Shown here: in pieces, positions 146-28,429 of the stretch
Numbering within the stretch: the stretch's first letter is position 1
Layout: every line of letters starts with the position of its first letter
Source of the DNA: a virus
Taxonomy: Duplodnaviria > Caudoviricetes
DNA: 38,934 bases
Strand: one strand, 5' to 3'
Virus record (IMG/VR): IMGVR_UViG_3300038314_001026
Coordinates: 1 to 38,934 of that record
Translations under genes and position numbers: made by a program
The notes under the pieces: generated by a model
The model's database searches: none
The model's input: the letters and a program-made list of their open reading frames with translations, nothing else
Told to the model about the DNA's origin: nothing

Positions 146-2401
146 CTATAACGCTATCGCTAGAGCTGTTGCTGTCGCCTCTGTTACTGGACCTGTTGGT
201 CCTGTTGGTCCTGTTGGTCCTGTAGCTCCAGTCGCTCCAGTCGCTCCAGTCGCTCCAGTCGCTCCAGTCGAACCAGTTGGACCTGTAGGTCCTGTTGGAC
301 CAGCCACACTACTTTCTGATGCTTGAACAAAGGATACCCCTATTTCATCAGCATTAGAAAATGTACTGTTACTTGCTACATGAGCTACATTGATTTTTGT
401 ATAGCCACTTGCTGAAGTATTCGCAGCATCTATTGTAAAATGTGCAAATTTTGTGCTGTCTGTTAGCTTAAATATTCTTAATCTACCCTTATTGTCAGCA
501 GCTCCTACATCATCTAGGGCATTAATCCACGCTGTTATATCTACGGTATCAATGTTTTCATCATTAATAAAAATCTTATCAACACTAGCTACAGTTCCGT
601 GATTGTATCTTAAGTTTCCACTTGATGGGTCGGAATCAGTTGTTGTTGTGCTGAATCTGTATTTAACAGTATCTCCACCAAAGCCAGTTGTCGCTCCAGC
701 TGGTCCAGTAGGACCTGTCGGACCAGTAGGACCTGTAGGTCCTGTTGGACCTGTCGGACCAGTTGAGCCAGTAGTTCCCTTATCGCCTTGCCTTGTAAAG
801 TGTATTGATAAACTATCACCAGCAGAAAAAGTATTACTCGATGCTAAATGCGTAACCGATAATGTATTAAAGCCCGATCCATCCGTAGAAGAACCTGTAA
901 TTGAAAATCTTGCGTATGTTGTAATATCATCAATATCACTAATATGTAAATACCCCTTTATTGTAGATGTACTATCATCCCAAGTTAAAACATCTGTTAC
1001 AGTATTGACTGAATTTTGATCTACATCATCTATATAAATAGCTGTTGCCGAAGCATAAGTACCATTATTAAAAGCAATTTCCCCTGCCCCTGGATCAACT
1101 GCACTTGTTCCTGTGTCAAATTTATAAAAATAACCTGGTGAAACTCCTGCATCACCATTTCTAGTAAAGTGAACTGAAAGTTCATCTGCTGCTGAAAAAG
1201 TATTATTGGATGCTAAATGAACAACTGTAATTTTATTATAACCCGAAGCATCTGTAACCGCAGCAGTAATTTTAAATCTTGCATACGTTGTGATGTCATT
1301 CATATCAGTAATATGAAGAAAACCTTTTACAGTTTCATTTGAATCCCCCCAAGTTGCTGTATCTGCCTGTGTTGAACCTCCATCAGCATCAGCATCATCA
1401 ATAAAGATTGTTGTTACAGAAGCATATGTGCCGTGATTAAAAGCTATATCACCTGCCCCTGGGTCAGTATCACTCGTTCCTGTATCAAACGTATATCTAT
1501 ATCCTGGGATTGCTCCATCTTCACCACTTGCAGTAAAAGAAAGAAATACTTTATCGTCAGCCGCTAAACTTCCAGCACCATCAATATAAACAAAAGTAAT
1601 TTTTGTATAGCCACTAGCATCTGTTACAGCAGCCGAAACTTTTAAAGAGTGCCAAACTCCTAAATCATTTGCCTTGCTAACTCTAATTCTTCCTCGATTA
1701 GTTGCATTGCCAGAAACATCATCAAAACTTTGTACCCACGCTGAAACGTCAGTCGCATTGTAATCCAAATCGTCTACATACATAATTGTTGCAGACGAAA
1801 TCGTTGCGTGATTGAAACGTAGATAGCCCCCACCAGGGTCACTATCAGTCGTTGTTGTTGAATATTGGAATAAAGCAGAATCTCCACCTTTAGGAAGAAA
1901 ATCTGCTATAATTGTTAAATCACCATCATCATCAAAACCTAATGCTTTATTTGCCCGGTCAGCTGCAATTGCCTCTAGGTCAACTGTTCCAGAATTTGAT
2001 TGAGAAATTTTAAAAGACCTGTCAAGTTGCTCTTGTTGTTGTTGGTCCTTTAAAATTGCTTTATCTATTGCATCTTCATGAGCGGACGCAGGAAATGCAT
2101 CACCATCTACATAGTCTGCATCTTGCGAAAGCGCCATGACACGCACGATTGTTACATTATGTGTTGTTGGGAGGTTATTATTGAGTGTGACTGTTGCACT
2201 TCCGTAACCTGCAGCCACTGAGACCGAATAGTCATAGGTGCCGCTGCCGTCCTTCGTCTGTAATGTTTCAACGCCTGTTGCTATTACTGTTGTATAGACC
2301 TTTAGGTCAGTTCCCGTGAATACCTTTTCATTGAAAGCATAGGCAGTCGTGCTGCCATTACCCGTGAATTGTACCTTTCCGTCGCCTGCAGATACTGTCA
2401 T
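146..2401 (-). CDS. Tail fibre protein with N-terminal anchor, four ~123-aa repeats and two collagen-like segments
   Basis: N-terminus ([12 protein letters not shown]...HEDAIDK...QQQQE) resembles podovirus fibre anchors; Thr/Ser/Gly/Asp-rich; GPT/GAT triplets; follows the ejection genes. Confidence 0.85.
186..305 (-). repeat. Collagen-like Gly-X-Thr coding repeat (9-bp units)
   Basis: Repeated gtcgctcca and ggtcctgtt units encode [38 protein letters not shown]. Confidence 0.9.
693..786 (-). repeat. Second collagen-like Gly-Pro-Thr coding repeat
   Basis: Encodes [33 protein letters not shown]. Confidence 0.9.
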
Positions 2402-5037
2402 AAGTTAGTTATCTCCTCAATTAAATTACCACCCGCTGTAAATGGATCTGTGCCACCCCTAGGTATAACACGACTTGGTGGTAAATAAAACCTTTGATTG
2501 CTCTTTTTGCGTATTCTGTTTTCCATTCGCTTGATATATCCGGGGTTCGAGAGCTCTTGTATGTTATATAATATCAGGTAGTCTATGATCATCTTCGTAT
2601 AGAATAGGTTAATAAACGGGGTGTTGGTCATCATGATCTTTCCAAGCTGTGCCGCCATGTTTGATGCCTCTGATTCTCCACGAATCGCCTTGCTGAATAT
2701 TGCCGCCACGTCTCCTAATTGTCCGAAGGAAGGTCCTGCCGCCGTCTTCAGCCATCCGCCACCAAACCTGTTGTACTCTCCAAAAAGGAAATCCCCATAG
2801 ATTCCTAGTCCTCCGCCCTGTGTCATTGCCGCCAATAAGACCTTGACATTATGTGTATAGTCGTTATTAAATACCCTAGGGATCCTTCCCTTTAAGATAT
2901 CCTTTGCCGCCATGGAGACATACCCCAAGACTGTTGTAGATACAATGAATTGCACAAGCCCAAAATAATCTGCCTTTCCCTTTCCATAAAGCTCTCTGCC
3001 GATTGCCCTTCTTGTCACCGTAAGCGGGAATGACTTGAACTGCCATAGAAGCCTTAGGGCAGATCCTAGATATGTCCCTGGACTTGTCCCTAGGTGCTGG
3101 AATGCCCTCTCCCATGCGCCAGGCATTGGGATGGCAAAGTCAGCACGGTCAACAAAGTAAGAGCCAATTGAAAGCTGTAGATCTTGCCGTGTCCTCTTTA
3201 TCCTTGACTGAGAGACCTTCATTGAAGGCACTCTTTCTTTTCTCTTGACATAGCTTATGATGACATCATCGCTAATGTCACTCATTGCCTCTGCCGTGAT
3301 GTATGTCCTTCTAGATTGCCCGTGTGTCCATGTCGCCTTCCTGATGACATCCCACTCAAGGTCCTCTATTCCAAACAATGTCAGTATTCTTTTTGTGTCT
3401 GCATCAAGGCTTTTAAATGGAAGGTTTTTTTGCTTCGCAAGATTGAATGACATTGTCTGTGCCATTCCCGCCCTGTGCGAGTCATTCCACCAATTCATTA
3501 GGTTCCATTTAAAAAACTTTTGTGATGCCTTTGCAAGCATTCCTGGCATCTGGTCAATGGTTGACCACCTGTTGATCATGTGTCCAATTTGCCCGTCTAA
3601 TCCTACGGCTACCATCTGCGAGACAAGTCGCCGTTCACTTTTAGGGGCACCTCTTCCTTTTCCAAGATCAGCAAATACCTTTCCCCACCTGTTAAAGAAA
3701 CCAAATCCTTGGTAGCTCAGCTCTGACGCCTTATTGGCAATGTCAACGAAAGAGGAGATTGTTGCCCCTCCTAGTTTTGACATGTTCTCTATCGCCATCA
3801 CGCCTCCTACAATATTTGCCATCTTTACGCTGTCAGGTATTCTTGCAGTCCCATCCACCTCTGAAAAAAGATTCCATAAGAATGTCTGGTTACTTTTTAA
3901 CGACCTGTTTAGCTTGTTGATTTTAGAATCCAACTTATCTGCCTCTTTTGCAGGAAGTGTCTTCTGCAATTTTCTCATCGCCGCTATCTCTTCCTTAATG
4001 ATTGTCCTTAGCATTGCCTCTGGATTTGTCCCTAGGTTTTTCATCAAGACAGTCGCCTTTGCCATGTGGTCAAGTCCAGACATTATATTCTCTTGCAGGC
4101 TTTTTGTCCCGAACTCTGTATTGTATTCCATGAAAGATTTTCCATCTTTAAAGTGAAGCAACCTATGCTGGCTGATTCTCTTTGCCATGTTTCCAGGCAT
4201 TCCAAGATGGGTGATAGGATCAAACTCATTAAAGCCATCACTATATTTCATGTGCACGCCTGTCTTCAATGCACTCCACACTGACCTAAAGAATTCCTTT
4301 TGGTCAGCGGCAGCAATATGGCCTGCCGTCTTATCAATGTCTAGTCGTGTAACAATGAACTTATACCATGCCTCAAATCCTGCACGCCTGATCTTCAGCA
4401 TGTTATGTGTCTGGCGCATGATGTAGCCAGGCAATCTTGAGATCCATGCACCAGCAAGATTTGCGTCATCTACCGCGGCAACCTGTATCTGATGAATAAT
4501 CTTTGCAATATTCCTTGCATTTTTATTACGGGTTATCCCTGGCTTTCCTCCAGGCTTCAGCTCAAATAGCTCCTCCATAACCTGTCGTTCTATCTTTCCC
4601 TTAATAAAGACCTCCCAAAGGTCTTGCTCCTCTAGCAATCTCATCATTCTTTTCTGGTAAAGGTCACCTAAGAATTTTTGCTGAACATCAATGCTTTTTC
4701 TTGCCCCTTTAACAAATCTCATTGCTCCTCCAAGAAATGCCTTAATTCCAACGTCTTTGTCATTAAAGTTTGCAAGATATTCTTTTGCCTTTAACTTTGC
4801 AATCTGGTTCAACACCCTTGAACGCTGCTTTACAGCTGTTGCAAATTCCTCTGCATTTGCAGTGTCCTTAATGTATTTCATAACCTCAGTATCCATGTCT
4901 GTGATCTTGCCTTGCGCCTTCTTTGTCTTGATGAAGTCAGCAACATCATCCATTAACTTTTCTGCCTCACTATCAGTAATCTTGTTCTCTGTCGCGTTAA
5001 CTACCTTCTTAATGCAATCTAAATATCTACTTGCCAT
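2398..5037 (-). CDS. Internal virion (DNA ejection) protein
   Basis: Probable start ATG 5037 (TAATG overlap with upstream stop); long helical protein with GYIMRQTH and QFKSFP motifs and Gly-rich hydrophobic C-terminal segments; last core-protein position before the fibre. Confidence 0.7.
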
Positions 5038-8000
5038 TATATCTTTCCTATCATGCAATTTGCTGCGGCTGACAATCCTTTTTTCAACCACTCAACCTTT
5101 GACTTTGACTCTTTTATTATAAGCTTTGCATCTGCAATCTCTGCGTTAATCTTCTTATTGTTAAGTGAGCCACCTAGCTCAAATATTTCTTCAATCTCTT
5201 TTTCCACATTTTTAAGTGCATGCCCCTCAGGGTCTGCCTCAACCTTTAATGTCTCCTCTACCTTGCTTAATTTCGTATCGTCAGCAGTCAGCTTTGTCTC
5301 TGCCGTCACATTACTTTTTACATTCTTATGGTAATGCTGAGAGCTTGCAAGGACCTCACTTGGCATCACACCTTCCATTGCATCAGGGTCTCCTTTTTTA
5401 GGTCTTGCCTCTACATATATGTGCAGCCATTTTTTATCTTTTCCTCCAAATATTCTAGTCTTCACATCTTTCCAATATGCATGCTTTATTACCCATGTGT
5501 TAGGAGGAAGCAATATCTCAAGCTCATAAGGAAACAGGTCATCACCACTTGCGCCTGCAAAGATGACAGACTGGTTTTTCTTAATGTTATAGTGAATCAC
5601 CATGTTTTTATCTGGGGAACCTTTCATCCAATGAAGCGCCTTTAGTTCAGTGATGCTTGTTGACTGATATCCATCATCTAAAAATTGTTTTCCTATAATT
5701 AAATCTATATCAGTCTCTTTCCCTATCCCACCTGGCATGTCATCAAATACCAGATGATGTGCACCTGTCTTTCGGTGCACTTGTGTGGCAATTTGTACAC
5801 CAAATTTATCTTCTAATTTTTTAAATATATCATACCATGCCCTATATTTTGACACATCTTGCTTGCTAAATTTTACTGTGTCTCCTATGGCCTGTTTAGA
5901 AGTAGTTTTTACTGGAACATCTCCTTCAGGTCTTCCTGCTCTTAGCCAATTGTTGAAGGATACTAAGGCTCCATGCTGATAGTCTTTCAATACTTTCTTC
6001 TCATTATATGTTAAATGCTTTAGTGCTAACTTTATTTGCTTTGCAAGCCATTTTTCAGCCTCATTCGAGCTATGAAATGCCTGGTATTTTGGCTTGTTCT
6101 TCAACATCTCGTCCATTGCCTTTTGTGCTACAGTATTAATGCCAGGTTGTAATGTATACTTAAGAGCGTGCGGGTCTACCTCCGTAGACTTTACAAGGGC
6201 ATTTCTCTCTAGTATAGCCTCATTTAATCTTCCTTGCAATTTTGTAAATGCCTCAGCGAGCTTCTTTTCCTCATCACTCATCTTTGCTGGCTTAGGCTTA
6301 TACTCAACTCCTTTTTCCTGAGCCTTTAAAAATGCTGGGATGTCTAATAATTCTTCTGGTAATTCTTGTTGTTTCTTTTTTATCTGAATAATCCTACGTT
6401 GAAGCTCTTTAATTTCCTTGTCTAATATTATTTTTTTTCCATTTTGTTCTGGAGTTAATACCTTTGTTAAAAATTTTGACTTACCAAGCCATGCAGGAAA
6501 CTTTAGATAATCTCCATGGGCCTGGTTGTCTTTTATCTTAAGGTCCATCCTTCTGCCAAGCAACAGTGAGATCATCTTGTTAATTGACGATATTTCACTA
6601 GCATATCTAGGATCTGCAAATTGCTTCAGGGCCTCTCCAAGCAATATGATTGTATTGTCGTCAAGCGTGTAGAGCTTTGCAATTCCTGCCTGTATGTTTG
6701 CCTCATCTAGAAGCCGTACAATGGCATGGTGAGAACGCCCCTTGTCAAGCAACGTCACGATCTCTTTAAAGTTATCCCCAAAATCTGAATTAAGTTTTTT
6801 CTGTCCTTTTGCCCTGAACAGCAGGCTTCCGCCATGGTCAATGCTGATAATTTCCCCGTTCTTTATGATTAGGTTTCCGGGGGCCGCAAAGTCCCAATTT
6901 CCTAGCCAGGCATGAATGACGTAGTCATCTGCAAACCTGTCAAACGCGTCAGGATTAGTTGACTTAATCTTCTTGATCTTGTCAAGTGTTGCAACCTCTG
7001 CGCCTTGCACCCACTTAGAGGCAACGCCTATGACCTTTCCCTTTGAGTGGACAATCCGTACCTCAGGGACATTTCCTTTTAAAATCTTTAAGATCCAGCC
7101 AGCCAGCATCTCATTGACAGCCCACTCAGATCCTATGTTCTTGACATACCACGTTGTCCCGTCAGGGGTGGAATACATCCCTCCCTTGTTTGATCCTAGC
7201 TGTTTTGAGCTTACAACATCCATCTGGTCTAGGTCAAGTGCATGGTCTTGCTGGTTGAATTTTACCCCGCCGCCATCCTCTGTATGACCTATCGTAGGTC
7301 CTGCATCATCTGCCTCTACATCTTTCTGTGGCTTATATTCTATCTGTCTTGAAGGAGGAATCTTTCCTGTTGCCAATGTCTCATATTCCTCTTTTAACAG
7401 CCTAGCTGCCTCTACATCATCTAAAATTTTTCCCTCAGGGGCTGACTTTGCAATGTTCCTTGCCGCCTGAATAATGGTGCTGACATCAATGTCTTTTCCT
7501 GCCGCTACCTGTCCAGCCGCAACCTTCAATGCCGCCTCATGCCTCTTGTGAGAGATGCCTCTCATCCAGTCAGCACCTCTTCCTCCAACAATATGAAGTC
7601 CTCCTCCTAAGACACTTCCAAATGATACGTTCATTAGAGAGTGCCACAAGGAATAATCAGCCTGTTCGTGGAAAAGTTGCGCTGCCGTAGGAACCTCAAA
7701 TGCAGTTGTAAAGATGGCCCCAGCCTTAAATCCCCTCCAAAATCTTGCACTTGTTAATCCTACACGTCCTACATTCGCTAAAAATGAAAGCTGTCCTCCT
7801 ATAGGGATGAACATTGCGCCAATGTTTGCAGGGTCCCATAATGCTGAGCCCATGCCTACGCCGATCATCCCGGCATTTTTCCAAAATCCATGCGCCCTAT
7901 TATAGACATCCTGGTATTTCATCTCAGCAATCTTACGCTCATGCAGCACCTGAGCCTCAGCAATGCTGACGTCATTGGTGAAGTTCAGCCTGCCATGCAA

Positions 8001-8327
8001 GCCATATTTTTCATTTGCCTCCTCTGCAGGAATAATATCTCCTGATGATTCCTCTGTCTCTCCTGAAATCTCATTATAGTAGCCATCTGGATATATGCTT
8101 TCCTTGTCTTTAAAGTCTTGCTCCCACCAACGTGCGACAGTTGACTCTGATTCCTCACTTCCAACAATGTCTCCCCATGATGTCAGCCTGTATCGTTCAA
8201 AATAATCAATAGTTGCCCATTTTGCTCCAAGACCTTTTTTCTCATGTTTCCAAGGCGCCTCAATGAAGTCATGCCCCGTCATATATGTGAAGGGGTTATC
8301 GTATGTTTTTGGCAGTTGCAGTTTCAT
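5037..8327 (-). CDS. Internal virion/ejection protein with inserted HipA/PI3K-like kinase and ADP-ribosyltransferase domains
   Basis: Lies in the ejection-protein block; Gly-rich hydrophobic N-terminal part; kinase motifs GSNKGG..YVK, NE, NWD...GN, IDHG; ART motifs VHR, YQSTS, ELEILL. Confidence 0.75.
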   Translation of the reverse strand: MKLQLPKTYDNPFTYMTGHDFIEAPWKHEKKGLGAKWATIDYFERYRLTSWGDIVGSEESESTVARWWEQDFKDKESIYPDGYYNEISGETEESSGDIIPAEEANEKYGLHGRLNFTNDVSIAEAQVLHERKIAEMKYQDVYNRAHGFWKNAGMIGVGMGSALWDPANIGAMFIPIGGQLSFLANVGRVGLTSARFWRGFKAGAIFTTAFEVPTAAQLFHEQADYSLWHSLMNVSFGSVLGGGLHIVGGRGADWMRGISHKRHEAALKVAAGQVAAGKDIDVSTIIQAARNIAKSAPEGKILDDVEAARLLKEEYETLATGKIPPSRQIEYKPQKDVEADDAGPTIGHTEDGGGVKFNQQDHALDLDQMDVVSSKQLGSNKGGMYSTPDGTTWYVKNIGSEWAVNEMLAGWILKILKGNVPEVRIVHSKGKVIGVASKWVQGAEVATLDKIKKIKSTNPDAFDRFADDYVIHAWLGNWDFAAPGNLIIKNGEIISIDHGGSLLFRAKGQKKLNSDFGDNFKEIVTLLDKGRSHHAIVRLLDEANIQAGIAKLYTLDDNTIILLGEALKQFADPRYASEISSINKMISLLLGRRMDLKIKDNQAHGDYLKFPAWLGKSKFLTKVLTPEQNGKKIILDKEIKELQRRIIQIKKKQQELPEELLDIPAFLKAQEKGVEYKPKPAKMSDEEKKLAEAFTKLQGRLNEAILERNALVKSTEVDPHALKYTLQPGINTVAQKAMDEMLKNKPKYQAFHSSNEAEKWLAKQIKLALKHLTYNEKKVLKDYQHGALVSFNNWLRAGRPEGDVPVKTTSKQAIGDTVKFSKQDVSKYRAWYDIFKKLEDKFGVQIATQVHRKTGAHHLVFDDMPGGIGKETDIDLIIGKQFLDDGYQSTSITELKALHWMKGSPDKNMVIHYNIKKNQSVIFAGASGDDLFPYELEILLPPNTWVIKHAYWKDVKTRIFGGKDKKWLHIYVEARPKKGDPDAMEGVMPSEVLASSQHYHKNVKSNVTAETKLTADDTKLSKVEETLKVEADPEGHALKNVEKEIEEIFELGGSLNNKKINAEIADAKLIIKESKSKVEWLKKGLSAAANCMIGKI

Positions 8328-8328
8328 T

Positions 8329-10644
8329 TTAATAGCCTATGATGGCATCATCACTACCCTGTGTAAGAAGCAGTAACATTTTACCCATAAAATTATTTTT
8401 ATTAGAATCTCCTGGACTCCAGTGGGCAAAGCTTATTTGCTCCCATGTATAGATAATAGGCTTTCCATCTTTTGTGACAGCCCTGATAGAGTCAGGATAA
8501 GGAGAGTTAAAGTTATAGATAAGCTCAACTCCTAGCCCGTCTGCAGTATTGCGCCATGCCCATGTTGAGGGGATGTTTTGCGCATCTTCTCTATAATCTG
8601 GTAAATCACTTATGTTAGGATCAACAGAATCTAAAGGCACCACGTCATACCAGCTAACATTATCAGGCTCTAGCATCATGTTTAAGACGCTATTTATCTT
8701 TGCAAGATCTTTTTTGCTTGCGCCAATCCACTTGTTCTTTCCGTCAACCATTATCTTAACAGGGATCAAGACCTTAGAAGGTCCATCAGATATTGTAAAC
8801 TTGCTTGCAAAATGGTCATCAATCACACCTTTCATTGCTGCATCTAGGTCATCATAGTTTCCTGACGCAAGCATCAGCTTAGCGCGTTTTATCAGCAAGC
8901 CTTGTATGGAGTTGACAAACTCTAAACGTTCAGGGGCATTGATTGTCAGTGCCTCTCGCCATTCCTCAAAAGGTTTTAGTGCTGTTTCTATATTTTTAGA
9001 AGCTGCTGCAATATGCTCAATTCCATCATCAAGCGTCTTAGAATCCATGTTCACCGCCTTCCACAGCTCGTGGAATTCAGGTTCATCAAGCCACATCAAT
9101 GCCGCAGCATGAGACTGGCTTAATTTTCCACCAATAATAACCTGGCTTAATCGCTCATCTGCCCACTCACCAACCTTTGCCCTCTCCTGTGTCATGTATG
9201 CCTTGACAAATCCAGGGTCAGAATTTGTCAATGCCTTGATCATGTCGTTTTCTTCTTGATTAGTCATGTACTTAATATTTGTAATCCCCATTGATTTTTG
9301 AAGATTTATAACCTTGTCAAGGGCAATCTTATATTCCGCATTTGCATTAAAGCCCTCCTCAATGTCCTTGTCGTCAACCTCAAGTCCTGCATATGCATTT
9401 GCTAGATTTTTATCATTTGATAAGATGTATTCTACAGGGTTAGCATCGCGCCGTTGTGAAATTTCATTTGCTGCCTCTATAGTTCCTCTATAGATGGCAG
9501 CATCTTCATTGTATTTTCTAGGCTTATCTTTATATTTAGGATCATTTTTATCAGGCGGCTCCAAGGTATTTATCATGTCTGTAAGAGCTTTATCTGAATA
9601 CCATGTCATTAGTTGATTATTTGCATAAATTCCCTTTCCTACAACTACAGAGGAAGCATAATTATTATATTTTACTGTTGCTTTTTCTATCCCATCTTTT
9701 GTTCCGTCTGACAATAATGTAAAATGGCTAAGAGTTAGTGGGCTAAGTTCATGTCCATGACGGGCAATATTACTTAAATTAGCCTGCACAGATTGATTAA
9801 GGTTCTCTAAGGCTAATGCACTTACCTTTTCTTTATGTGAGGTTGCCCTGTTGAGAAGCTGTATTAATGTATCTTCATTTACCTTGTCATCAAATATTCC
9901 AGATTTAATCCAGTTAATTGCAAGGTCTATTTTTTCTTTTTCATTAGAATCAATCAATCCCTCTAATGCATTAGAGATGATCTTATTATTGGCAGAGTCT
10001 CTTATTGTTTCAATCATCTTAGGAGGAAGCATCCTAAGGTAGTCTTTTGGCTCATCTTCTGGGTCATAGACGCCATCTAGCATTCCTGTTATAGAGCCAA
10101 GGTGCATCTCCCACTCAAGAGGATTTTTATAGGAAAGCATTGCCGTCTTGTTAATTGCGATAGCCATCTCACTGCTCAGGTGTGAATACCGTGTCTCGGT
10201 CTGGTAGCTTAAAAAGCTGTTGACTGCAGCTGGACGCCATGCCTCTATCTTTACGGCAAGCGCATCCCTAGCTTCATCATTAGGGGCGTTCGCCAATAGC
10301 TCATCTTTTATCTTGTTAAATTCATTCTCTGCAAATTCTGTAAATCCTGCCCCAGAAGGATCGTCATACGTCTCTTGCCATCCACTTTCTTGCTCTGCCA
10401 CCTGGGTCTTGAAATCAGCAATATTTGTTGTCACCCACAATAGGTTGTCTTCTTTATTCCTTTTTTCCTTGATCTTTTCTATCTGTTCAACTGACGCTGA
10501 AGCCTGCTCCATTCCCTTTGCAAAGTTTTGTATGCCTATATTTGACAGGTTTTGAATCTCTGCGTCAGAAAGAGAGCGAATAGGTGTAGGCCGTATCTCT
10601 GTACCTTGCCTTGTTAAATCTCTATATGTTGGTACCTTAACCAT
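8329..10644 (-). CDS. Internal virion protein
   Basis: 771-aa acidic helical ORF starting MVKVPTY, in the core-protein block, translationally coupled to neighbours. Confidence 0.65.
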   Translation of the reverse strand: MVKVPTYRDLTRQGTEIRPTPIRSLSDAEIQNLSNIGIQNFAKGMEQASASVEQIEKIKEKRNKEDNLLWVTTNIADFKTQVAEQESGWQETYDDPSGAGFTEFAENEFNKIKDELLANAPNDEARDALAVKIEAWRPAAVNSFLSYQTETRYSHLSSEMAIAINKTAMLSYKNPLEWEMHLGSITGMLDGVYDPEDEPKDYLRMLPPKMIETIRDSANNKIISNALEGLIDSNEKEKIDLAINWIKSGIFDDKVNEDTLIQLLNRATSHKEKVSALALENLNQSVQANLSNIARHGHELSPLTLSHFTLLSDGTKDGIEKATVKYNNYASSVVVGKGIYANNQLMTWYSDKALTDMINTLEPPDKNDPKYKDKPRKYNEDAAIYRGTIEAANEISQRRDANPVEYILSNDKNLANAYAGLEVDDKDIEEGFNANAEYKIALDKVINLQKSMGITNIKYMTNQEENDMIKALTNSDPGFVKAYMTQERAKVGEWADERLSQVIIGGKLSQSHAAALMWLDEPEFHELWKAVNMDSKTLDDGIEHIAAASKNIETALKPFEEWREALTINAPERLEFVNSIQGLLIKRAKLMLASGNYDDLDAAMKGVIDDHFASKFTISDGPSKVLIPVKIMVDGKNKWIGASKKDLAKINSVLNMMLEPDNVSWYDVVPLDSVDPNISDLPDYREDAQNIPSTWAWRNTADGLGVELIYNFNSPYPDSIRAVTKDGKPIIYTWEQISFAHWSPGDSNKNNFMGKMLLLLTQGSDDAIIGY

Positions 10645-11114
10645 TAGGTATATCCCATTGCATAGCCAGTTTGCATAGTTTGAGAGGCACCGCCAAGTAT
10701 CGTGCCAAACGCCTGCATCTTTCCTCTTAGGTTTGCGGCACGCCCCTTGAGCAATGAAACCTCTGCCTCTGTCTTATATCCTCTTGCCTTCATTGCAGCA
10801 TTATACTCCATTGTCGCCTCATCTTGCGCCGCAAGAATCATTGTATCCTCATCTAGGTCATGAGGGGTGAATTGCAGCGAGACGCCTGCCTTTGTAAACA
10901 AGACCCTTTGCGTGCCTTGTATCTTTCTTAAATTTTGGCGATGAACATACTTTTTCCATTCCAGCGCCTCCATCTCAGCAGATGCATTTCCTTGTTGAAC
11001 AGCGGCGTTATACTCATACATCTTCTTCTGAGCCTTGCCCTGTGCATAGGAGCCATAGGCAGATATTGCCGTAGCTCCACCCATTAAGGCCATTGCTACA
11101 ACAGCTTTACTCAT
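10644..11114 (-). CDS. Small internal virion protein (T7 gp14-like position)
   Basis: Ala/Gly-rich hydrophobic N-terminus, YNAAV, AGV motif, C-terminal GTILGGAS; position after the GNAT gene. Confidence 0.65.
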   Translation of the reverse strand: MSKAVVAMALMGGATAISAYGSYAQGKAQKKMYEYNAAVQQGNASAEMEALEWKKYVHRQNLRKIQGTQRVLFTKAGVSLQFTPHDLDEDTMILAAQDEATMEYNAAMKARGYKTEAEVSLLKGRAANLRGKMQAFGTILGGASQTMQTGYAMGYT

Positions 11115-11553
11115 AAAACCTCACCAGTTTAACATAATCTTCCTTGTTCGGACCAAATTTTTTTAGCACTGCTTCCTCTTCAAATCCTAGGTATTTTGCA
11201 AACTTAACTGCATTTTCAAACTCTTTTATAACATGACAATCCACTCGATGAAACTTAAATTCATTCGCTATCATGTTTAAATAGTACTTTATATCTTTAA
11301 TACAACGGATCTTATTCTTCTTAAACTTTTCAGACAAGAACATGTATGCCTCGCCAACCCCATTCCAATAGGGCATGACCCCGCATATTCCTACCACATC
11401 AGGCCTATCAAACCATGAAAATGTAGCACCATTATATTTCAAGGCATCTAACAAATTTGGCCATGTCTTTCCATAATTATTTATCATCTTCTGCTCAGGT
11501 CCTGATAACTTTATATGATCGAAGTGCCATGTCTCAAAAGGAACTATTTTCAT
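11107..11553 (-). CDS. GNAT-fold acetyltransferase-like protein (T7 gp13-like position)
   Basis: Start ATG 11553 overlaps tail B stop (ATGA); GICGV..W.GVGEAY, HRVDCHV, NAVKFAKYLGFEEEA motifs. Confidence 0.7.
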   Translation of the reverse strand: MKIVPFETWHFDHIKLSGPEQKMINNYGKTWPNLLDALKYNGATFSWFDRPDVVGICGVMPYWNGVGEAYMFLSEKFKKNKIRCIKDIKYYLNMIANEFKFHRVDCHVIKEFENAVKFAKYLGFEEEAVLKKFGPNKEDYVKLVRFYE

Positions 11554-13865
11554 CTTACAGACGTCATCATGTGTACCATCATCCCTAATATTGTGCAAGG
11601 CAATGGATCGGATGATAATGCGTATACTTGTTTTTCTTTTTCGTAGTGTCCAGGAAATAACATTTCAAAGTCTCCTGACTTTGCCTTTAATGCATGAATT
11701 GGATCTGTTGTTTTCCTAAACGGAATAACATCAGTCATAGAGCTAGAAGGTCCTGCCTTAAGGTTGACCGTCTCATGCAATCTCCATATAACCTTGTCAA
11801 TTCTTCCTGTCTTTCCTTGGCTTGTCCCATATTCTCCTCCTGGCTCAAGATTCATTGTCTTCATTGTTGCACTATATCCTAGCCCAACCTTAACCTCTCT
11901 TGCAGCAGTAGTTAGTGTAATCGCAGCGCTTGAGACAGTCTTATTAGAGACAACGCCGCCGTCTGCCAATACTGTAACGCTTTCTCCTTCAAGATGTCCT
12001 AGCCCTGATATGCTTGTTACAGCTGTCGCACTCGACAGGCTTAATCCTGAGTCCACAAACCAGGCATCTGATATTGTCTGCCCAGCATCTCCTCTAAAGT
12101 CTTCTTGTAAAAATTCAACATATTGCTTTGTTGCCCCATCAATTGTTCTTTCTACAATCATGTATAATGTGTCATAGGCATCATCTACTCCAGGAATAAT
12201 CGCAATGCTTTTTATCTTTGAAGGTAATTTTAAATAGTGGGTAGCACTATTATCGCTATCTGTTACTTGAATAATTGTCCTAGTTTTTGCTTGTTCTTTT
12301 GTTGATGCTAATTCTACCTCATCTGAATCTACATTATAGACATAATATGTTCCTCCATCAGTCAAGCCTCCCATTGCTCCATTACCATTTGCATCATAGA
12401 TAACCTCATCTCCAGTTGCTAATCCATGAGCTGCACTGCACGTAATTTGAAAATCTGCATCTGCAGCATTTCCAGCAAAGGCAATCTTTCTATCTCCACC
12501 TATTATATGGCGGTGCCATGCAACGACGTTTTGATCTCTGTAAAATGTCAGTCCTAACAACTGTCCATCACTGCGTACAGCCCAAAGCATGTTGTCAGGG
12601 TTGCTAGCATAGGCAAGTTGTATAATTTCAGGATAGCCGACATGCTCAGACATAACTGTCATGTCAGGGGTTGTAAAGCTGTCATAGTCAATGTTATATG
12701 CATATTCTCTAACCTTCTTCTTATTCTTTCCAACAAATAAGATTGACTTTGACGCACCTATTGGCGCAATGTTTGCAGCCCCGTCATTTGTCTCTCTTGT
12801 TGCAAGGATAGATGTAGGCGTTACACTTGCAGTTGCACTTCCTGATGAGACATTAAAAGGTCCTGCCGTTGTGAATAATGTAAGATAGCGATGAGAAAGC
12901 ATCCCTGTAATTGTTGCAACCTCACCAACGGCAAGCTGATATGTTACAGCATCATCATTGGCAACAGTTCCATCTACCGCAGTGATAGAAAAATTATCAT
13001 AATCATCAGTTACAGATCCCCATATTGTTCCAGGATAATTTAATATGTTTGCATAATATAATCTTCCCTCAAAAAATTGAACCTGAGAAGGATAGTTAGC
13101 CGCATAAAATGCTGACAGTCTCCAGTCTGTTGTTGCAGCTGTACTTTCTAGTGCAGTATTAATGACAGTGGCTGTCACTGATGTTGCACTAGAATATGCT
13201 GTAATTTTCATGAAGCGCCAATTTGACTGCTTTGTACGAATATATCTTCCTACATCTGTTGATGCAAATGTATTTGTGCTGGCAGTAATTGTAATGCTTC
13301 CACTTGTCCCGCTTGGGGTTAATGTCGTAGCAGATGTATTAAGTGTTGACCATGGCGGCTCAAAATAATTTGTTGTATCCGCTCCCCATGGAATGTCTGT
13401 AACGGTCCATGCCGTATGGCTTGACCTTGTTATCTTTACAGGGTGAAGATCAGGATGCACAACATACAAGATGTCAGCAGATTGAGCAAACCTAAGATTA
13501 GCAACTTGCGCCGCAGTCCAGTCACAGTTTGATGTAATTTCAACTACAGAGCCTCCTGATGAAACCTGTCCTTCATCCTTAAATATCCTGAAATAATTAT
13601 GTCCAAATTCTAAGACATATGCCTGCGTCTTAGAAAATATAAATGGTACTAGTACTGCCCCTGAATTTGACCCTGTCTGGGTCTTGATTCCAGCAATATA
13701 GCCAGTTCCTGATCTTTTTGTGATACCTCCGTGTGTGAAGACCTTAAAATTCTCTAATGTCTCAACACCGTTTTGATACCTGTCTAGATCAACACGGCCA
13801 GCTAAACGAGGACTAAGCTCGCCTGCTGTAAAGTTGGTAATAACTGGTACTGCCCTATTGCCCAT
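11550..13865 (-). CDS. Tail tubular protein B (nozzle)
   Basis: NFTAGELSPRL.GRVD...Y, RFAQSADILY, AWHRH, VDSG, VLADG, VGLGY motifs. Confidence 0.9.
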   Translation of the reverse strand: MGNRAVPVITNFTAGELSPRLAGRVDLDRYQNGVETLENFKVFTHGGITKRSGTGYIAGIKTQTGSNSGAVLVPFIFSKTQAYVLEFGHNYFRIFKDEGQVSSGGSVVEITSNCDWTAAQVANLRFAQSADILYVVHPDLHPVKITRSSHTAWTVTDIPWGADTTNYFEPPWSTLNTSATTLTPSGTSGSITITASTNTFASTDVGRYIRTKQSNWRFMKITAYSSATSVTATVINTALESTAATTDWRLSAFYAANYPSQVQFFEGRLYYANILNYPGTIWGSVTDDYDNFSITAVDGTVANDDAVTYQLAVGEVATITGMLSHRYLTLFTTAGPFNVSSGSATASVTPTSILATRETNDGAANIAPIGASKSILFVGKNKKKVREYAYNIDYDSFTTPDMTVMSEHVGYPEIIQLAYASNPDNMLWAVRSDGQLLGLTFYRDQNVVAWHRHIIGGDRKIAFAGNAADADFQITCSAAHGLATGDEVIYDANGNGAMGGLTDGGTYYVYNVDSDEVELASTKEQAKTRTIIQVTDSDNSATHYLKLPSKIKSIAIIPGVDDAYDTLYMIVERTIDGATKQYVEFLQEDFRGDAGQTISDAWFVDSGLSLSSATAVTSISGLGHLEGESVTVLADGGVVSNKTVSSAAITLTTAAREVKVGLGYSATMKTMNLEPGGEYGTSQGKTGRIDKVIWRLHETVNLKAGPSSSMTDVIPFRKTTDPIHALKAKSGDFEMLFPGHYEKEKQVYALSSDPLPCTILGMMVHMMTSVR

Positions 13866-24630: not shown

Positions 24631-25542
24631 ATGGCAAATGCCAGAGGACAGACGACTGACAAGACTCACTTGAGCATTGATCAGGCTGAGGTTCGTGGCT
24701 TTCTGCACCGTGACTACATTGCGCACTGCTTTAGGTGGTCTCATATCTGCAAGTATCTGAATGAGAAGAACCGCTATAAGAAGGCACGCATACTAGACGT
24801 GGGATGTGGGAAGGACATGCCCTTGGCAAAGACGTTAATGACAAGCAGGATGTCTCCTGAGTTCTACCTAGGGGTAGACTTCAACAAGATGGACGTTCCT
24901 GAGATGTTCCTGCATACTAAATTTCAACCGCGACTGTGGGCGCCGTTAGATTTTTCAAAGTGCTACCTAGATGATTACAACGACCCAGAATACACGCAGT
25001 TCAACTACACAGCATGCCTAGAGGTACTAGAGCATGTGGAGCCGTGGAAGGCGATAAAGATACTTAGGCAAATTCCACACCTCACAACTGACAGTGCAAT
25101 CTCTTGGTTTTCAACACCATGCTACGACGAGAAGGTCGGTGCGGCAAAGAATCATGTCAACGAGATGACATATCACGCATTTGGGGCATTGCTAGAGGAC
25201 TGTGGCTACAAGATATTGAAGCACTGGGGCACGTTTGCCTCAATAAAAGACTACAAGCATGAGCTAGAGGTAAACAATTACCTTGACATATTTGAAAAAC
25301 TCCGTGATTATTATGACACCAATGTCTTGGCGACAATATTTGCACCTTGCTTTCCTGCTAATGCAAGAAACGTCTTATGGGAAACGCAGTATGTAGGCAA
25401 GCTACATCTAAAAGAAAGACGCTTTACGCCTATTATTCACCAGGAAGGACGCTGGGGCTCAAGCGAGAGCTGGAGAGAATTGCGTCACATTAAAGTACAA
25501 GAAGAAGACATGAATGAAGAACCAATGACAAAGGTGCTATAA
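24631..25542 (+). CDS. Class I SAM-dependent methyltransferase (small-molecule type)
   Basis: ILDVGCG motif I, YLGVD motif II, LEVLEHV, FSTP, NHVNE. Confidence 0.85.
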   Translation: MANARGQTTDKTHLSIDQAEVRGFLHRDYIAHCFRWSHICKYLNEKNRYKKARILDVGCGKDMPLAKTLMTSRMSPEFYLGVDFNKMDVPEMFLHTKFQPRLWAPLDFSKCYLDDYNDPEYTQFNYTACLEVLEHVEPWKAIKILRQIPHLTTDSAISWFSTPCYDEKVGAAKNHVNEMTYHAFGALLEDCGYKILKHWGTFASIKDYKHELEVNNYLDIFEKLRDYYDTNVLATIFAPCFPANARNVLWETQYVGKLHLKERRFTPIIHQEGRWGSSESWRELRHIKVQEEDMNEEPMTKVL

Positions 25543-25543
25543 G

Positions 25544-25942
25544 ATGACATTTAAAGTTAGAGAGCCTGTGTTAGACGTGGTGTCTTGCTTCAGTGATGTT
25601 GCAAGCTTTCACATTAAGAATGGACTAGGGTATGCTGGACCGGTGCGCGACCTTCCAAAGGAGATCCAGGTTGCGAGGATCAGGCACCTCAGAGAGGAGC
25701 TTGCGGAACTTATTGTAGGACTTGAGGATAATAATAGAGAGTCAATCCTTGACGCCTGCATTGATCTTGTTTATGTCGCAATTGGGACAGCATACCTTCA
25801 TGGTTTTGACCTAGAGGAGGCATGGAAACGTGTCCAAAAGGCAAACATGTCAAAAATAAGACAAAAGACGGAGAGGTCAGACTGGGATATTGTCAAGCCA
25901 CCAGGGTGGAAGGCGCCAGACCTTAAAGACCTTGCAGAATGA
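25544..25942 (+). CDS. MazG-like nucleotide pyrophosphohydrolase
   Basis: LREELAEL, DACIDLVYVAIG, VQKANMSK, KPPGWKAPDL motifs. Confidence 0.9.
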   Translation: MTFKVREPVLDVVSCFSDVASFHIKNGLGYAGPVRDLPKEIQVARIRHLREELAELIVGLEDNNRESILDACIDLVYVAIGTAYLHGFDLEEAWKRVQKANMSKIRQKTERSDWDIVKPPGWKAPDLKDLAE

Positions 25943-26103
25943 CACCTAATGAGGAATTGTTTTGGACAAGGGTTAGAAGGCTTAAGAAGATGATCAGGAA
26001 GATCAACCATAAGAAAGATCCTGCATATAAGGCAATGTGGAAGAGAAAGCTTGTAGAGATTACAAAGAGCATTGGAAAAAAGGAGTGTACGAATGGAAAA
26101 TAG
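25939..26103 (+). CDS. Small basic protein, 54 aa (not in ORF track)
   Basis: MTPNEELFWTRVRRLKKMIRKINHKKDPAYKAMWKRKLVEITKSIGKKECTNGK; ATGA overlap upstream, stop abuts the next ATG. Confidence 0.7.
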   Translation: MTPNEELFWTRVRRLKKMIRKINHKKDPAYKAMWKRKLVEITKSIGKKECTNGK

Positions 26104-27102
26104 ATGGGCAACATCATAGTACTAGAGGGACCAGATGCCGTGGGCAAGACAACACTTGCCAAGGCATTCAATGAGCACAGCAAGGACCCTGTCAAGTACC
26201 TCCATCTTAGCTATAGGTGGAAGGACAAGATCTTTGACTATCATACTGCAGCAATGAAGCTTGCATCACGCTGGGCATATAACGGATACAATGTCTTGAT
26301 TGACAGGTGGTGGCCAAGTGAGGCATGCTACGCAACTGTCTATCGGAACGGTTCACCGTGGCCATTGCAGGGAAGGATGCATGATCGTGTAATGCTGAAA
26401 TATGGCGGACATTATGTCTATTGCCTTCCTGATGAAGATACAATAAAGAGGTTTGAGAAGCTAAAGACGCAGCGAGAAGAGTATGCAGACAATATTGATA
26501 AGGTATGCCAGATGTATAAGGATCTATACTTCGGCAACAGAACGGCAAAAGATGAGGGAAATTTCGCTCATAAGATGATCAAGAGTGGCGGAGTAGGGAC
26601 ATTGCCATATGTACGTATGTATACAATTAACCGTTGGGGAAGCCATCTTAAGGAATATGTCGAAAATGTGTTAAAACATGCTACAAGGTGGAGGGAGCGA
26701 CAGTACTATAAGGCGCTTAATCCTGACTACCATAACTTTGTAGGCTATCTTCCTACGGCAAAATATCTGTTTGTAGGAGATCAGGTCAGGCCAAAGAAGC
26801 ACATGTACTGGCCGTTCATAGAGTATGGAAACAGCAGCCTGCACATTACAAAGGCACTAGATGAGCTCTGGTTTAATGAGATGGAAGGTATCTGGGCAAA
26901 TGCCTATGACGAAAAAGGCAACCCTAACCATGATTTAGCTGAAATTATCAGTTTTAATCCGAAGATAAAGGTGATACTATTAGGTAAATCAGCCGCTAAG
27001 GTGGCAGAGACCTTTGGGATAAAAGGTGAGTTAATATATCATCCCCAGTGGTTTAGAAGATTTAATGAAGACTTAACCTCAGCACTAAGGGAGGTGATTT
27101 GA
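26104..27102 (+). CDS. dNMP (thymidylate-type) kinase fused to a C-terminal UDG-like domain
   Basis: IIVLEGPDAVGKTT P-loop and LIDRW..SE; C-terminal LFVGDQ, WPF, VILLGKSA, YHPQW. Confidence 0.75.
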   Translation: MGNIIVLEGPDAVGKTTLAKAFNEHSKDPVKYLHLSYRWKDKIFDYHTAAMKLASRWAYNGYNVLIDRWWPSEACYATVYRNGSPWPLQGRMHDRVMLKYGGHYVYCLPDEDTIKRFEKLKTQREEYADNIDKVCQMYKDLYFGNRTAKDEGNFAHKMIKSGGVGTLPYVRMYTINRWGSHLKEYVENVLKHATRWRERQYYKALNPDYHNFVGYLPTAKYLFVGDQVRPKKHMYWPFIEYGNSSLHITKALDELWFNEMEGIWANAYDEKGNPNHDLAEIISFNPKIKVILLGKSAAKVAETFGIKGELIYHPQWFRRFNEDLTSALREVI

Positions 27103-27923
27103 TGGACGTAACAGACCTACATGGAAGGACCGCCAATGATGAGTGGTTTACGACACTATGCCTATTGATGAGAAAGTCTAAGTCTCACGAGGTTGACCCC
27201 AAGGGGAAAAAGACACTCGAGATACTTAATCATTCTACAATTGTCAACATGAAAGAGCCAGTTGTGACCTATGAAAAAAGACGTCTAGGCTACAAGTTCA
27301 TGGCTGCAGAGGCATATTGGATATTAACTGGAAGAAATGATGTTGATTTTATAGGTGAATACTCTAAGCAGATATCTCAATTCTCTGATGACGGATATTT
27401 CTTTAATGGAGCATATGGACCAAGGATTGTAGACCAATTAACATACGTTGTAAATGAATTAATGCGAGATATTCATACAAGGCAGGCTGTCATGACGATA
27501 TGGAGGCCTAATCCAAGGCCATCAGTTGATATTCCTTGCACAATCTCAGTTCAATTCATGGTAAGAAATGATAAGCTTCACATTTTTGACACAATGCGAA
27601 GCAGTGACATCTGGCTAGGATGGCCGTATGATGTGTTTAATTTTACAGCACTTGCCGTCTATGTCGCTCTTCTTTATAAGATGAAGACAAAAAGGGTCTT
27701 AGACCTAGGAAATTTATATCTTACTGCTGCAAGCCAGCATCTGTATGAGTCAGACATGGACGCAGCACTTGAGGTTGTAAGTGATGCAACAAAATGGACA
27801 CCGTTGCACTTTAATGTGCACCAGTTTGAAAACCCTAACCAGTTATTGCAGTGGTTGCATATACTGGCTAAAAAGAATGGAGTGATAGATACATATGTTC
27901 CCGATAAGCAAACCAATCAGTGA
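27102..27923 (+). CDS. Thymidylate-synthase-family enzyme, dCMP (hydroxy)methylase type
   Basis: AYGPRI, TRQAV, DIPCT (catalytic Cys), MRSSDIWLGWPYD, SQHLY; Asp at the dUMP/dCMP specificity position. Confidence 0.85.
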   Translation: MDVTDLHGRTANDEWFTTLCLLMRKSKSHEVDPKGKKTLEILNHSTIVNMKEPVVTYEKRRLGYKFMAAEAYWILTGRNDVDFIGEYSKQISQFSDDGYFFNGAYGPRIVDQLTYVVNELMRDIHTRQAVMTIWRPNPRPSVDIPCTISVQFMVRNDKLHIFDTMRSSDIWLGWPYDVFNFTALAVYVALLYKMKTKRVLDLGNLYLTAASQHLYESDMDAALEVVSDATKWTPLHFNVHQFENPNQLLQWLHILAKKNGVIDTYVPDKQTNQ

Positions 27924-28429
27924 GACCCACTAAATTAGAATATTTTCTTAACATGGCGACCCTAGTATCAACTAGGTCTACATGCAAGCGTAGGGCTGTC
28001 GGTTGTGTGCTTGTTGATAGCAATGACTATGTTATTGCAACAGGATACAATGGGGTTGGAAGTGGACAGATCCACTGCATCTCTGAACCGTGCGCCGGGT
28101 CTAACTATAAGACTGGAGAAGGTCTTGACAAGTGCGAGGCAATTCATGCTGAGCAGAACGCTATCCTTCAATGCAGGGACGTGCAGAAAATCAAGACAGC
28201 ATTTATTACACTCAGTCCGTGTGTAACTTGTGCAAAGCTTTTGTTGAATACAAGTTGCAGGACAATTATATTTGACAGAGAGTATATTAATACGGACGCA
28301 GAAAGGATATGGAAAAATGCAGGAAGAAATTGGGTTAAATCAGCAGATGCCGCTTTGGGCACCAAATTCTCGTTGGACACCCCCAGCGACTTTACCAGAC
28401 TTGTCCTCGGCAAGTATCTTAGCGATTGA
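27920..28429 (+). CDS. dCMP deaminase
   Basis: RSTC.R..VGCV, ATGYNG, HAEQNA, SPCVTC Zn motifs. Confidence 0.93.
   Translation: MRPTKLEYFLNMATLVSTRSTCKRRAVGCVLVDSNDYVIATGYNGVGSGQIHCISEPCAGSNYKTGEGLDKCEAIHAEQNAILQCRDVQKIKTAFITLSPCVTCAKLLLNTSCRTIIFDREYINTDAERIWKNAGRNWVKSADAALGTKFSLDTPSDFTRLVLGKYLSD

Follow-up and report, generated by a model that had tools for sequence, protein, structure and literature searches.

The window, the whole 38,934-nucleotide stretch of DNA analyzed here (IMG/VR virus record IMGVR_UViG_3300038314_001026), encodes P0001, an ejection-type virion protein into which a predicted atypical kinase domain and a predicted ADP-ribosyltransferase (ART) domain have been inserted. 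The kinase-ART pair recurs on several other carriers, and the kinase co-occurs with a small unnamed gene, here called gene X. The reading that we favor, to which we assign a probability of about 0.5, is that the pair would be an injected, swappable, host-modifying payload and that the product of gene X would be its inhibitor. The features concerned are the following (aa, amino acids).

5037..8327, minus strand: P0001, a 1096-aa internal-virion (ejection-type) protein with an inserted kinase plus ART cassette, recognized from profile matches and syntenic orthologues
7428..8327, minus strand: N-terminal scaffold of P0001 (aa 1-~300), Gly-rich and moderately hydrophobic over aa ~150-250; PHROG and phage-record matches
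6528..7253, minus strand: atypical kinase domain, aa 359-600, with a G-S-N-x-G loop, K396, E406, N477-W-D479, N485 and D497-x-G-G
6191..6464, minus strand: helical and dispensable insert that separates the kinase from the ART (aa ~622-712), missing in the related protein P0003 and modeled as long helices
5400..6092, minus strand: C3/VIP2-type (R-S-E) ART domain, aa ~746-976, with R852, S889-T-S891 and E935-x-E937
5037..5360, minus strand: C-terminal helical scaffold with a terminal A-A-N-C-x-x-G-K, common to insert-free orthologues; C1091 is invariant in an alignment that takes in HTVC035P gp48 and P0160
30254..30634, plus strand: unnamed 126-aa gene X, immediately downstream of DNA polymerase A; by co-occurrence, a candidate kinase inhibitor (immunity protein)

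P0001 is an ejection-type protein with an inserted cassette

An initial annotation, made from the sequence of the window, had placed a 1096-aa open reading frame among the genes for ejection proteins. This placement was borne out: the synteny of the ejection operon is full in 12 of 12 related loci, and the gene occupies the position of an epsilon15/HTVC010P-type internal virion protein (IVP), after IVP-A, IVP-B and a large IVP and before an IVP-D-like gene, with a homologous N-terminal scaffold. The scaffold matches phrog_3003 (E 2e-15) and, weakly, phrog_342, "internal virion protein with endolysin domain" (E 2e-4). Residues 1-300 match 21 phage records, 14 of which are Pelagibacter phages whose proteins are annotated as internal virion proteins, and the scaffold is 34% identical to P0160, a related scaffold that has no insert. 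When P0001 was compared by profile with the syntenic genes of the distant loci L050-L077, the probability was 0.7%; no homology is shown there and the link is one of synteny. The N-terminal region had also been described as Gly-rich and hydrophobic. It is Gly-rich, and its hydrophobicity is moderate, exceeding 1.2 on the Kyte-Doolittle scale in one 19-residue window (aa 169-187).

Comparison with orthologues, which had been proposed as a check for inserts, showed that both enzyme domains are absent from cultured relatives. The counterpart at the same place in phage HTVC035P is 489 aa long and annotated as "putative internal virion protein", and those in two further cultured-phage records are 530 and 566 aa. 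All of them match P0001 at its two ends, the terminal Cys motif included, and lack its middle part; the kinase and ART are thus an insertion, of ~620 aa. The insert was found in the same gene order in nine protein clusters and 12 IMG/VR loci (11 complete, one ending at a contig edge), a set that was retrieved by patterns including the kinase motif and so gives no measure of how frequent the insert is. Within the insert, a 272-base linker is optional, as it is skipped by single contigs from sequencing runs X10 and X11, which belong to two studies.

The 14 scaffold-borne kinases tested form one group in a quick tree of 77 rows (SH-aLRT 92), which is compatible with a single acquisition of the cassette by the scaffold. 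Between loci L005 and L007, the scaffold ends are 99% identical, the kinases 83% and the ARTs 64%; judged by these identities, cassettes have been exchanged on the same scaffold. Another protein, P0161, combines the same ejection scaffold with domains that carry the Pfam labels of a zeta-toxin-like (PF06414) and a ParB-like (PF18763) family. The presence of these other enzymes on it indicates that the scaffold is a general cargo carrier.

The kinase domain is atypical

The kinase motifs are LGSNKGG at aa 377-383 (7199-7179), WYVK with K396, NE with E406, WLGNWDFAAPGN at aa 474-485 and IDHGG at aa 496-500. Every motif that the initial annotation had named was recovered in place, and these motifs are not there by chance: the fold check that it had suggested for both domains, run with Foldseek and VIA, found a kinase fold and an ART fold. 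A model of the kinase alone had a predicted local distance difference test score (pLDDT) of 94.2 and a predicted template modeling score (pTM) of 0.91. Its closest match was CtkA (Z 17.0, root mean square deviation (rmsd) 3.2, 212 residues aligned), followed by CotH (Z 15.5), MavQ (14.4), HipA (14.0), PI4KII (13.2) and actin-fragmin kinase (12.2); Foldseek concurred. The model has two lobes with a Gly loop, a Lys, a helix-C Glu, a catalytic Asp/Asn pair and a metal Asp, the roles of these residues being assigned from their order and conservation. In 158 homologues picked by similarity to the query, no change was seen at K396, E406, D497 or G500, and conservation reaches 99% at N477, D479 and N485.

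The domain thus shares its whole fold with the CtkA, CotH, HipA and MavQ kinases (Z 14-17), as well as the Lys, Glu, Asp-Asn and metal Asp, at an identity of 10-18%. The catalytic loops of PI3K, HipA and CtkA carry a His, whereas that of P0001 reads N-W-D-x5-7-N and has none. The domain passed no Pfam, PHROG or NCBIfam family, the best Pfam match being ABC1 (E 0.04). Sequence searches of the PDB returned Legionella effector protein B (E 1.9), HipA (E 1.1), uL23 matches that were judged spurious and other matches due to chance, so that the kinase was placed by fold searches only.

Three candidate assignments were rejected. Membership of the HipA family was not supported, since P0001 matched neither HipA_C nor HipA_2 at the curated cut-off; single-domain relatives reached HipA profiles at E 0.008-0.04 on the N-lobe, below cut-off, and the profile was passed only by P0016, a protein with five repeats, on its summed score. 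No HipB/HipS antitoxin gene was found among the scanned open reading frames of the window, and gene X fits no family. The catalytic motif of the PI3K/PI4K lipid kinases is D-R-H; in P0001, D479 is followed by F-A, and in most relatives by V-V. The domain also differs from the kinase of polyvalent proteins, as it has a complete helical C-lobe in the model and no conserved His (Iyer 2017). Of the earlier label, a HipA/PI3K-like kinase, the resemblance in fold stands, and membership of either family does not. Based on the model, the domain is an atypical kinase of the CtkA/CotH/HipA/PI4K branch, and its likeness to HipA is one of fold only.

The ART domain retains a full R-S-E set

The motifs of the ART domain are DY at aa 782-783, FNNWLR at 791-796, VHR with R852, GYQSTS at 886-891 and ELEILL with E935 and E937 (~5525-5508). 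The domain passes Pfam PF03496 above the cut-off (E 2.5e-7). An AlphaFold model of aa 355-985, built with 42 sequences, covered both enzymes (pLDDT 81.7, pTM 0.74), and the best fold matches of the ART were C3-, VIP2- and iota-type ARTs (Foldseek E 1e-9; VIA Z 18-21, rmsd ~3 over ~190 residues). These results uphold the motifs and the fold given in the initial annotation; the span, aa ~746-976 (6092-5400), is a little wider than had been claimed. In an alignment of 138 family domains, the Arg is kept in 91% and the two Glu residues of ExE in 93 and 99%, and R852, S889-T-S891 and E935-L-E937 of the window ART agree with the consensus. The ExE motif in R-S-E ARTs goes with arginine as the ADP-ribose acceptor, and from its presence we infer that the P0001 ART would transfer ADP-ribose to arginine.

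The kinase-ART pair recurs on several carriers

The kinase family comprises 2,533 representatives (clusters at 50% identity). Among the 150 best of these, 115 have a fused ART, which follows the kinase in 112; the ARTs were detected with a hidden Markov model iterated on these 150 representatives, and a control with reversed sequences gave 0 of 150. Coupling of kinase and ART was seen in 46 of 80 bacterial genome loci, both prophage-like and other, and in 42 of 75 viral loci. Some of the remaining kinase proteins carry scabin-, DraT- or polyvalent-type ARTs, and Nudix, 2H and WGR domains are further fusion partners of the kinase. The initial annotation had considered the pair a rarity; it is instead a recurring cassette on many carriers, and it is found also in the bacterial effector HopAG1.

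In the samples scanned, the carriers are often MuF/minor-head proteins. P0001 itself gave no match to the MuF domain (PF04233), which many of its kinase relatives do match, and the P0001-type scaffold is the carrier in 13 of the 150 representatives. The kinase is present in 20 of 50,697 cultured phage records. It precedes an ART in Dolphis gp117, in an ECML-606-1 protein and in gp129 of the Yersinia phage fHe-Yen8-01, which is labeled, by annotation only, "phage particle associated protein". The Pseudomonas putida phages Dolphis and Jeremy encode the kinase, the ART and X a few genes apart. In some contigs, stand-alone kinases start with MK-x-F-x-x-F-x-E, and the adjoining ARTs start similarly. 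We take this start to resemble the T4 capsid-targeting tag, whose existence, as distinct from its letters, is confirmed in the literature. The presence of the same kinase on several unrelated packaging routes (MuF, the P0001-type scaffold, a particle-associated protein and stand-alone kinases with a tag-like start) lends support to delivery.

Further arrangements of the family were observed. A stand-alone kinase is followed directly or nearly directly by X at L164:3522-6264, L173:2660-3703, L217:9279-12202, L231 and L189, and most of these loci have one or two ART genes beside the kinase on the opposite strand. At L109:7637-9328, L083:7637-9397 and 34 similar tails, MuF-kinase proteins that lack an R-S-E ART end in a conserved tail of ~560 aa that has no Pfam match and contains H...GGA-Y-F-T-R...N-E-T-I-F; as a guess from this motif, the tail is possibly an H-Y-E-type ART. 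In P0016 (3416 aa), P0109 (2799 aa) and the protein of L148, domains are multiplied: there are either five kinase-ART repeats or eleven ART domains with a single kinase among them.

Gene X co-occurs with the kinase

The linkage of gene X to the kinase family, a tight one that extends across unrelated phages, had been overlooked in the initial annotation. X gave no Pfam, PHROG, NCBIfam or PDB match, and the Atlas returned unnamed clusters only. Its invariant residues are S, R-x-R, D-Y-x-x-R, Y-x-N-F-K and W. Among the 50,697 cultured phage records, X is present in nine, and all nine are among the 20 that contain the kinase. A search of IMG/VR with X alone found 371 relatives, and in the best 80 of these loci the kinase lies within 10 kb in 47; of the other 33, 11 have a kinase elsewhere in the record, including six of the seven near-complete records. 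In the reverse direction, X is carried by 35 of 46 kinase records (the larger ones of 80) and by 14 of the 17 that are near-complete. In the control, 23 related podoviruses without the insert, X is present in none. Two complete relatives of the window phage have the fused gene and X at the same distant positions.

Of 94 distinct pairs, 89 have X downstream of the kinase gene, with a median gap of 742 bp, and a small gene downstream of the toxin is the usual position of an immunity gene (Jamet 2017). In loci where X stands among MuF/portal head genes, it is again downstream, sometimes on the opposite strand. Its start has no capsid-tag-like sequence. Distances between kinases and between X proteins are correlated (Mantel rho 0.23, p 0.004), and nearest neighbors agree in 19 of 64 cases against 3 expected. 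Paired mutual information gave a best z of 5.9, within the 5.2-7.2 of shuffled pairs; with 66 effective sequences this comparison is underpowered and counts neither way. On the strength of position and co-occurrence, we lean slightly toward X being an inhibitor of the kinase.

Two loci show a fuller arrangement. Downstream of the kinase-ART gene in Dolphis (L013:7713-9474) and fHe-Yen8-01 (L015:7737-9600) come a small gene, a Nudix gene and X, of which the first two are annotated as particle-associated in fHe-Yen8-01 and X is not.

Proposed mechanism and points against it

In the reading that we favor, P0001 would be packed into the head with the other ejection proteins and would cross the envelope together with the DNA at infection. 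The kinase and the arginine-directed ART would reach the cytoplasm and there, ahead of any phage gene expression, would use ATP and NAD+ to modify host proteins, leading to takeover of the host or to anti-defense, as T4 Alt (Iyer 2017; Iyer 2022) and the T7 kinase (PMC13645617) do separately. X would be produced along with the replication genes; it would then inhibit the kinase, so that the cell is protected during synthesis of new payload, and in prophages it would confer immunity, a role that Jamet 2017 proposes for the partners of MuF toxins. The packaging of P0001 is highly probable. Delivery of the insert to the cytoplasm is quite probable, and IVPs have been proposed to bring passenger enzymes there (Hardies 2016). 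Both enzymes are likely to be active in the window phage, and a protein is somewhat more likely than a small molecule to be the substrate.

Several observations weigh against parts of this reading. As to delivery, gp15/gp16 of epsilon15 have been treated as IVP-C-like (Hardies 2016), and by analogy such a role could leave the insert in the periplasm, where there is neither ATP nor NAD+; the modest hydrophobicity of the scaffold also speaks against a cytoplasmic facing of the insert. As to the substrate, the fold neighbors of the kinase include the lipid kinases MavQ and PI4KII. As to the ART, in all nine distinct IMG/VR orthologues and in P0005-P0010 the Arg is replaced by S, T, A or V and STS by NGS, NAS or NAT, so that the ART may be dispensable or altered in this sister clade and two active enzymes may not be found clade-wide. 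As to X, it is missing from 11 cultured kinase records, all Gordonia phages, from three of the 17 near-complete kinase records and, within 7 kb of the kinase, from 51 of 80 genome loci, and one near-complete X record has no kinase. Eight of the nine cultured phages with X, 86-96 kb in size, seem to form a single group and hence are not independent, and the modest co-variation of kinase and X may reflect kinship of the phages.

Alternative explanations

The alternative that survives best, though unlikely in our estimate, is that the two enzymes work one after the other on a single target or nucleotide, with X and the Nudix and 2H partners tuning the pathway. The kinase could phosphorylate the ADP-ribose or a neighboring residue and so block host erasers, or it could activate the ART. 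Such action would fit the frequent fusion of the kinase to ARTs from several families (VIP2-, DraT-, scabin- and polyvalent-type) and to Nudix, 2H and WGR domains, the hint of a fixed mutual position in the pTM of 0.74 of the two-domain model, and the retention of ART, kinase and Nudix in HopAG1, which belongs to an entirely different delivery system. However, stand-alone kinases occur and the domain order varies, the sister clade kept the kinase but changed the NAD-binding residues of the ART, and unrelated enzymes gather on head-packaged proteins anyway (Iyer 2017). An extended form of this alternative is just as tentative: a widespread three-part system of tailed phages (kinase, ART and inhibitor X) that would enter heads along no fewer than three unrelated routes (ejection protein, MuF and T4-type tag), whose serial enzymes would leave a twofold mark resistant to host erasers, for example phosphorylated ADP-ribose, and that would have been taken over by P. 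syringae as HopAG1.

It is less probable still that the kinase is the working payload and that the ART is degenerate, or an NAD+-binding or -hydrolyzing module, in much of the clade. The substitutions in the nine IMG/VR orthologues point in this direction, as does the faster divergence of the ART relative to the kinase; X, moreover, tracks 56 distinct kinases without a fused R-S-E ART and 39 with one, in a set enriched for X. Yet the window ART has the complete R-STS-ExE set, and the Arg and the second Glu are kept across most of the 138 family domains. Even the altered ARTs retain ExE, have a Lys or Arg two residues past the lost Arg and are under purifying selection, with ratios of nonsynonymous to synonymous substitution (dN/dS) of about 0.07 and 0.14 in two close pairs.

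We also consider it doubtful, and a little more so, that X is a substrate, activator or adaptor, or that kinase and ART are active during late infection or assembly in the cell that makes the phage, for instance against defenses that sense structural proteins. X has more invariant residues than a typical, fast-evolving immunity protein and lies in the replication arm, 22 kb from the kinase gene in the window, but in MuF/portal head-gene loci it is downstream and without a capsid-tag-like start. A role in protecting packaging has been raised for head-linked ARTs (Iyer 2022, section 3.7.1), although without delivery it is difficult to see why fusion to unrelated packaging devices recurs. A non-functional passenger is very improbable given the conserved catalytic residues and the same architecture in nine full-length protein clusters and 11 complete loci, and an assembly chimera was rejected in view of this recurrence and of single contigs from two other studies that cover scaffold, kinase and ART.

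Comparison with known systems

Within the favored reading of an injected kinase-ART payload, the closest precedents are T4 Alt and the MuF-ART toxins, which likewise have a C3/VIP2-fold R-S-E ART on a head-packaged carrier (Iyer 2022, section 3.7.1; Jamet 2017). A small downstream gene is the candidate immunity protein of the MuF-ART toxins, as X is here (Jamet 2017). A further shared feature lies in MuF itself, which carries many kinases related to this one. In contrast to both, the carrier in the window is a podovirus ejection protein and a kinase stands ahead of the ART. The word "kinase" does not occur in the main text of Jamet 2017, and in Iyer 2022 it occurs in unrelated contexts only. 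Polyvalent proteins and the passengers of IVPs (N4 gp50, H66 gp60) also place unrelated enzymes on an injected virion protein, with variation of cassettes (Iyer 2017; Hardies 2016). The polyvalent-protein kinase, however, has no C-terminal subdomain and has a His-insert-Asp arrangement, and the accompanying ART is of the H-Y-D type (Iyer 2017), whereas P0001 has a complete C-lobe, a Trp before the Asp and an R-S-E ART.

HopAG1, a type III effector of Pseudomonas syringae whose name is taken from the database labels of its cluster, belongs to the same kinase family (32% identity; GSNPGG, WLANWDV and IDLGG). As in P0001, its kinase is in one chain with an R/ExE ART-like domain. It differs from P0001 in its order, which is ART-kinase-Nudix, in being delivered by a bacterium into plant cells and in having no X within 7 kb. 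Its domains have reportedly been dissected genetically. Two P. syringae-group loci, L100:6137-8284 and L103:6137-8287, have HopAG1 with the kinase between the ART-like and Nudix domains, ahead of hopAH1 and hopAI1.

The T7 kinase gp0.7 (T7K) is expressed early and is not known as a virion protein. It is a phage kinase for host takeover and anti-defense that needs to be shut off, as is proposed here; it carries a DPV motif and shuts itself off by autophosphorylation (PMC13645617); the kinase of P0001, in contrast, would likely have a separate shut-off gene and virion delivery.

Earlier work thus describes ARTs carried in virions, ejection proteins with passenger enzymes and, for polyvalent proteins, a kinase of another type. 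A full-text literature search, which took in few subscription journals and no HopAG1 papers, found no report of a virion-delivered kinase, of this phage kinase family, of the kinase-ART cassette or of X. The Mecenats66 paper mentions neither kinase nor ADP-ribosyl, and the accessible part of the Iyer 2022 supplement gave no match for Dolphis or PI3K. The kinase belongs to a large family, yet that of P0001 passes no Pfam, PHROG or NCBIfam family, and carriers are consequently labeled "ADP-ribosyltransferase" or "hypothetical". Virion-delivered ARTs (T4 Alt) and anti-defense phage kinases (T7K) have been known separately, and the pair would join the two. Together with X, it is probably a widespread, unstudied means of chemical host modification at the moment of infection. 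The small family X gains a candidate function that is open to test in the cultured Pseudomonas putida phages, and a plant-pathogen effector, HopAG1, is linked to phage head proteins.

Genome context of the window

The window is a linear virus record, 95% complete. Its minus arm and the neighbors of P0001 are as follows, and its plus arm carries the replication genes.

Minus strand: podovirus head-tail module with terminase, portal, Bbp19-like gene, capsid, tail tubes A and B, GNAT, IVP-B-like gene, three large internal proteins and tail fiber
10644..11598, minus strand: start of the ejection operon, with an IVP-B-like gene (156 aa) and an IVP-A-like GNAT (163 aa); phrog_418, phrog_308 and Pfam Acetyltransf_4
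8329..10644, minus strand: 771-aa helical internal virion protein upstream of P0001, in the IVP-C position by synteny in 12 of 12 loci; no PHROG match
2398..5091, minus strand: 897-aa virion structural protein downstream of P0001 (phrog_684, E 2e-174), in the IVP-D/epsilon15 gp17 position by synteny

A search for related loci with the 897-aa neighbor as query gave no match. The capsid protein is 55% identical to that of Pelagibacter phage HTVC010P. The GC content of the window is 42%; this value and the replication arm are unlike those of pelagiphages. The sequencing runs that contain the P0001 gene are marine or seawater metagenomes (five possible sources were set aside), and none of those listed is an RNA run.

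Two other regions of the window were recorded. At 24631-28429 on the plus strand, genes for a methyltransferase, a MazG-like pyrophosphatase, a nucleotide kinase, a divergent thymidylate-synthase-like protein and a dCMP deaminase are clustered, and this cluster could serve the synthesis of a modified base. At 146-2401 on the minus strand, the tail fiber contains a repeated D-x-D-P-G-x-G module and collagen-like G-P-T runs.

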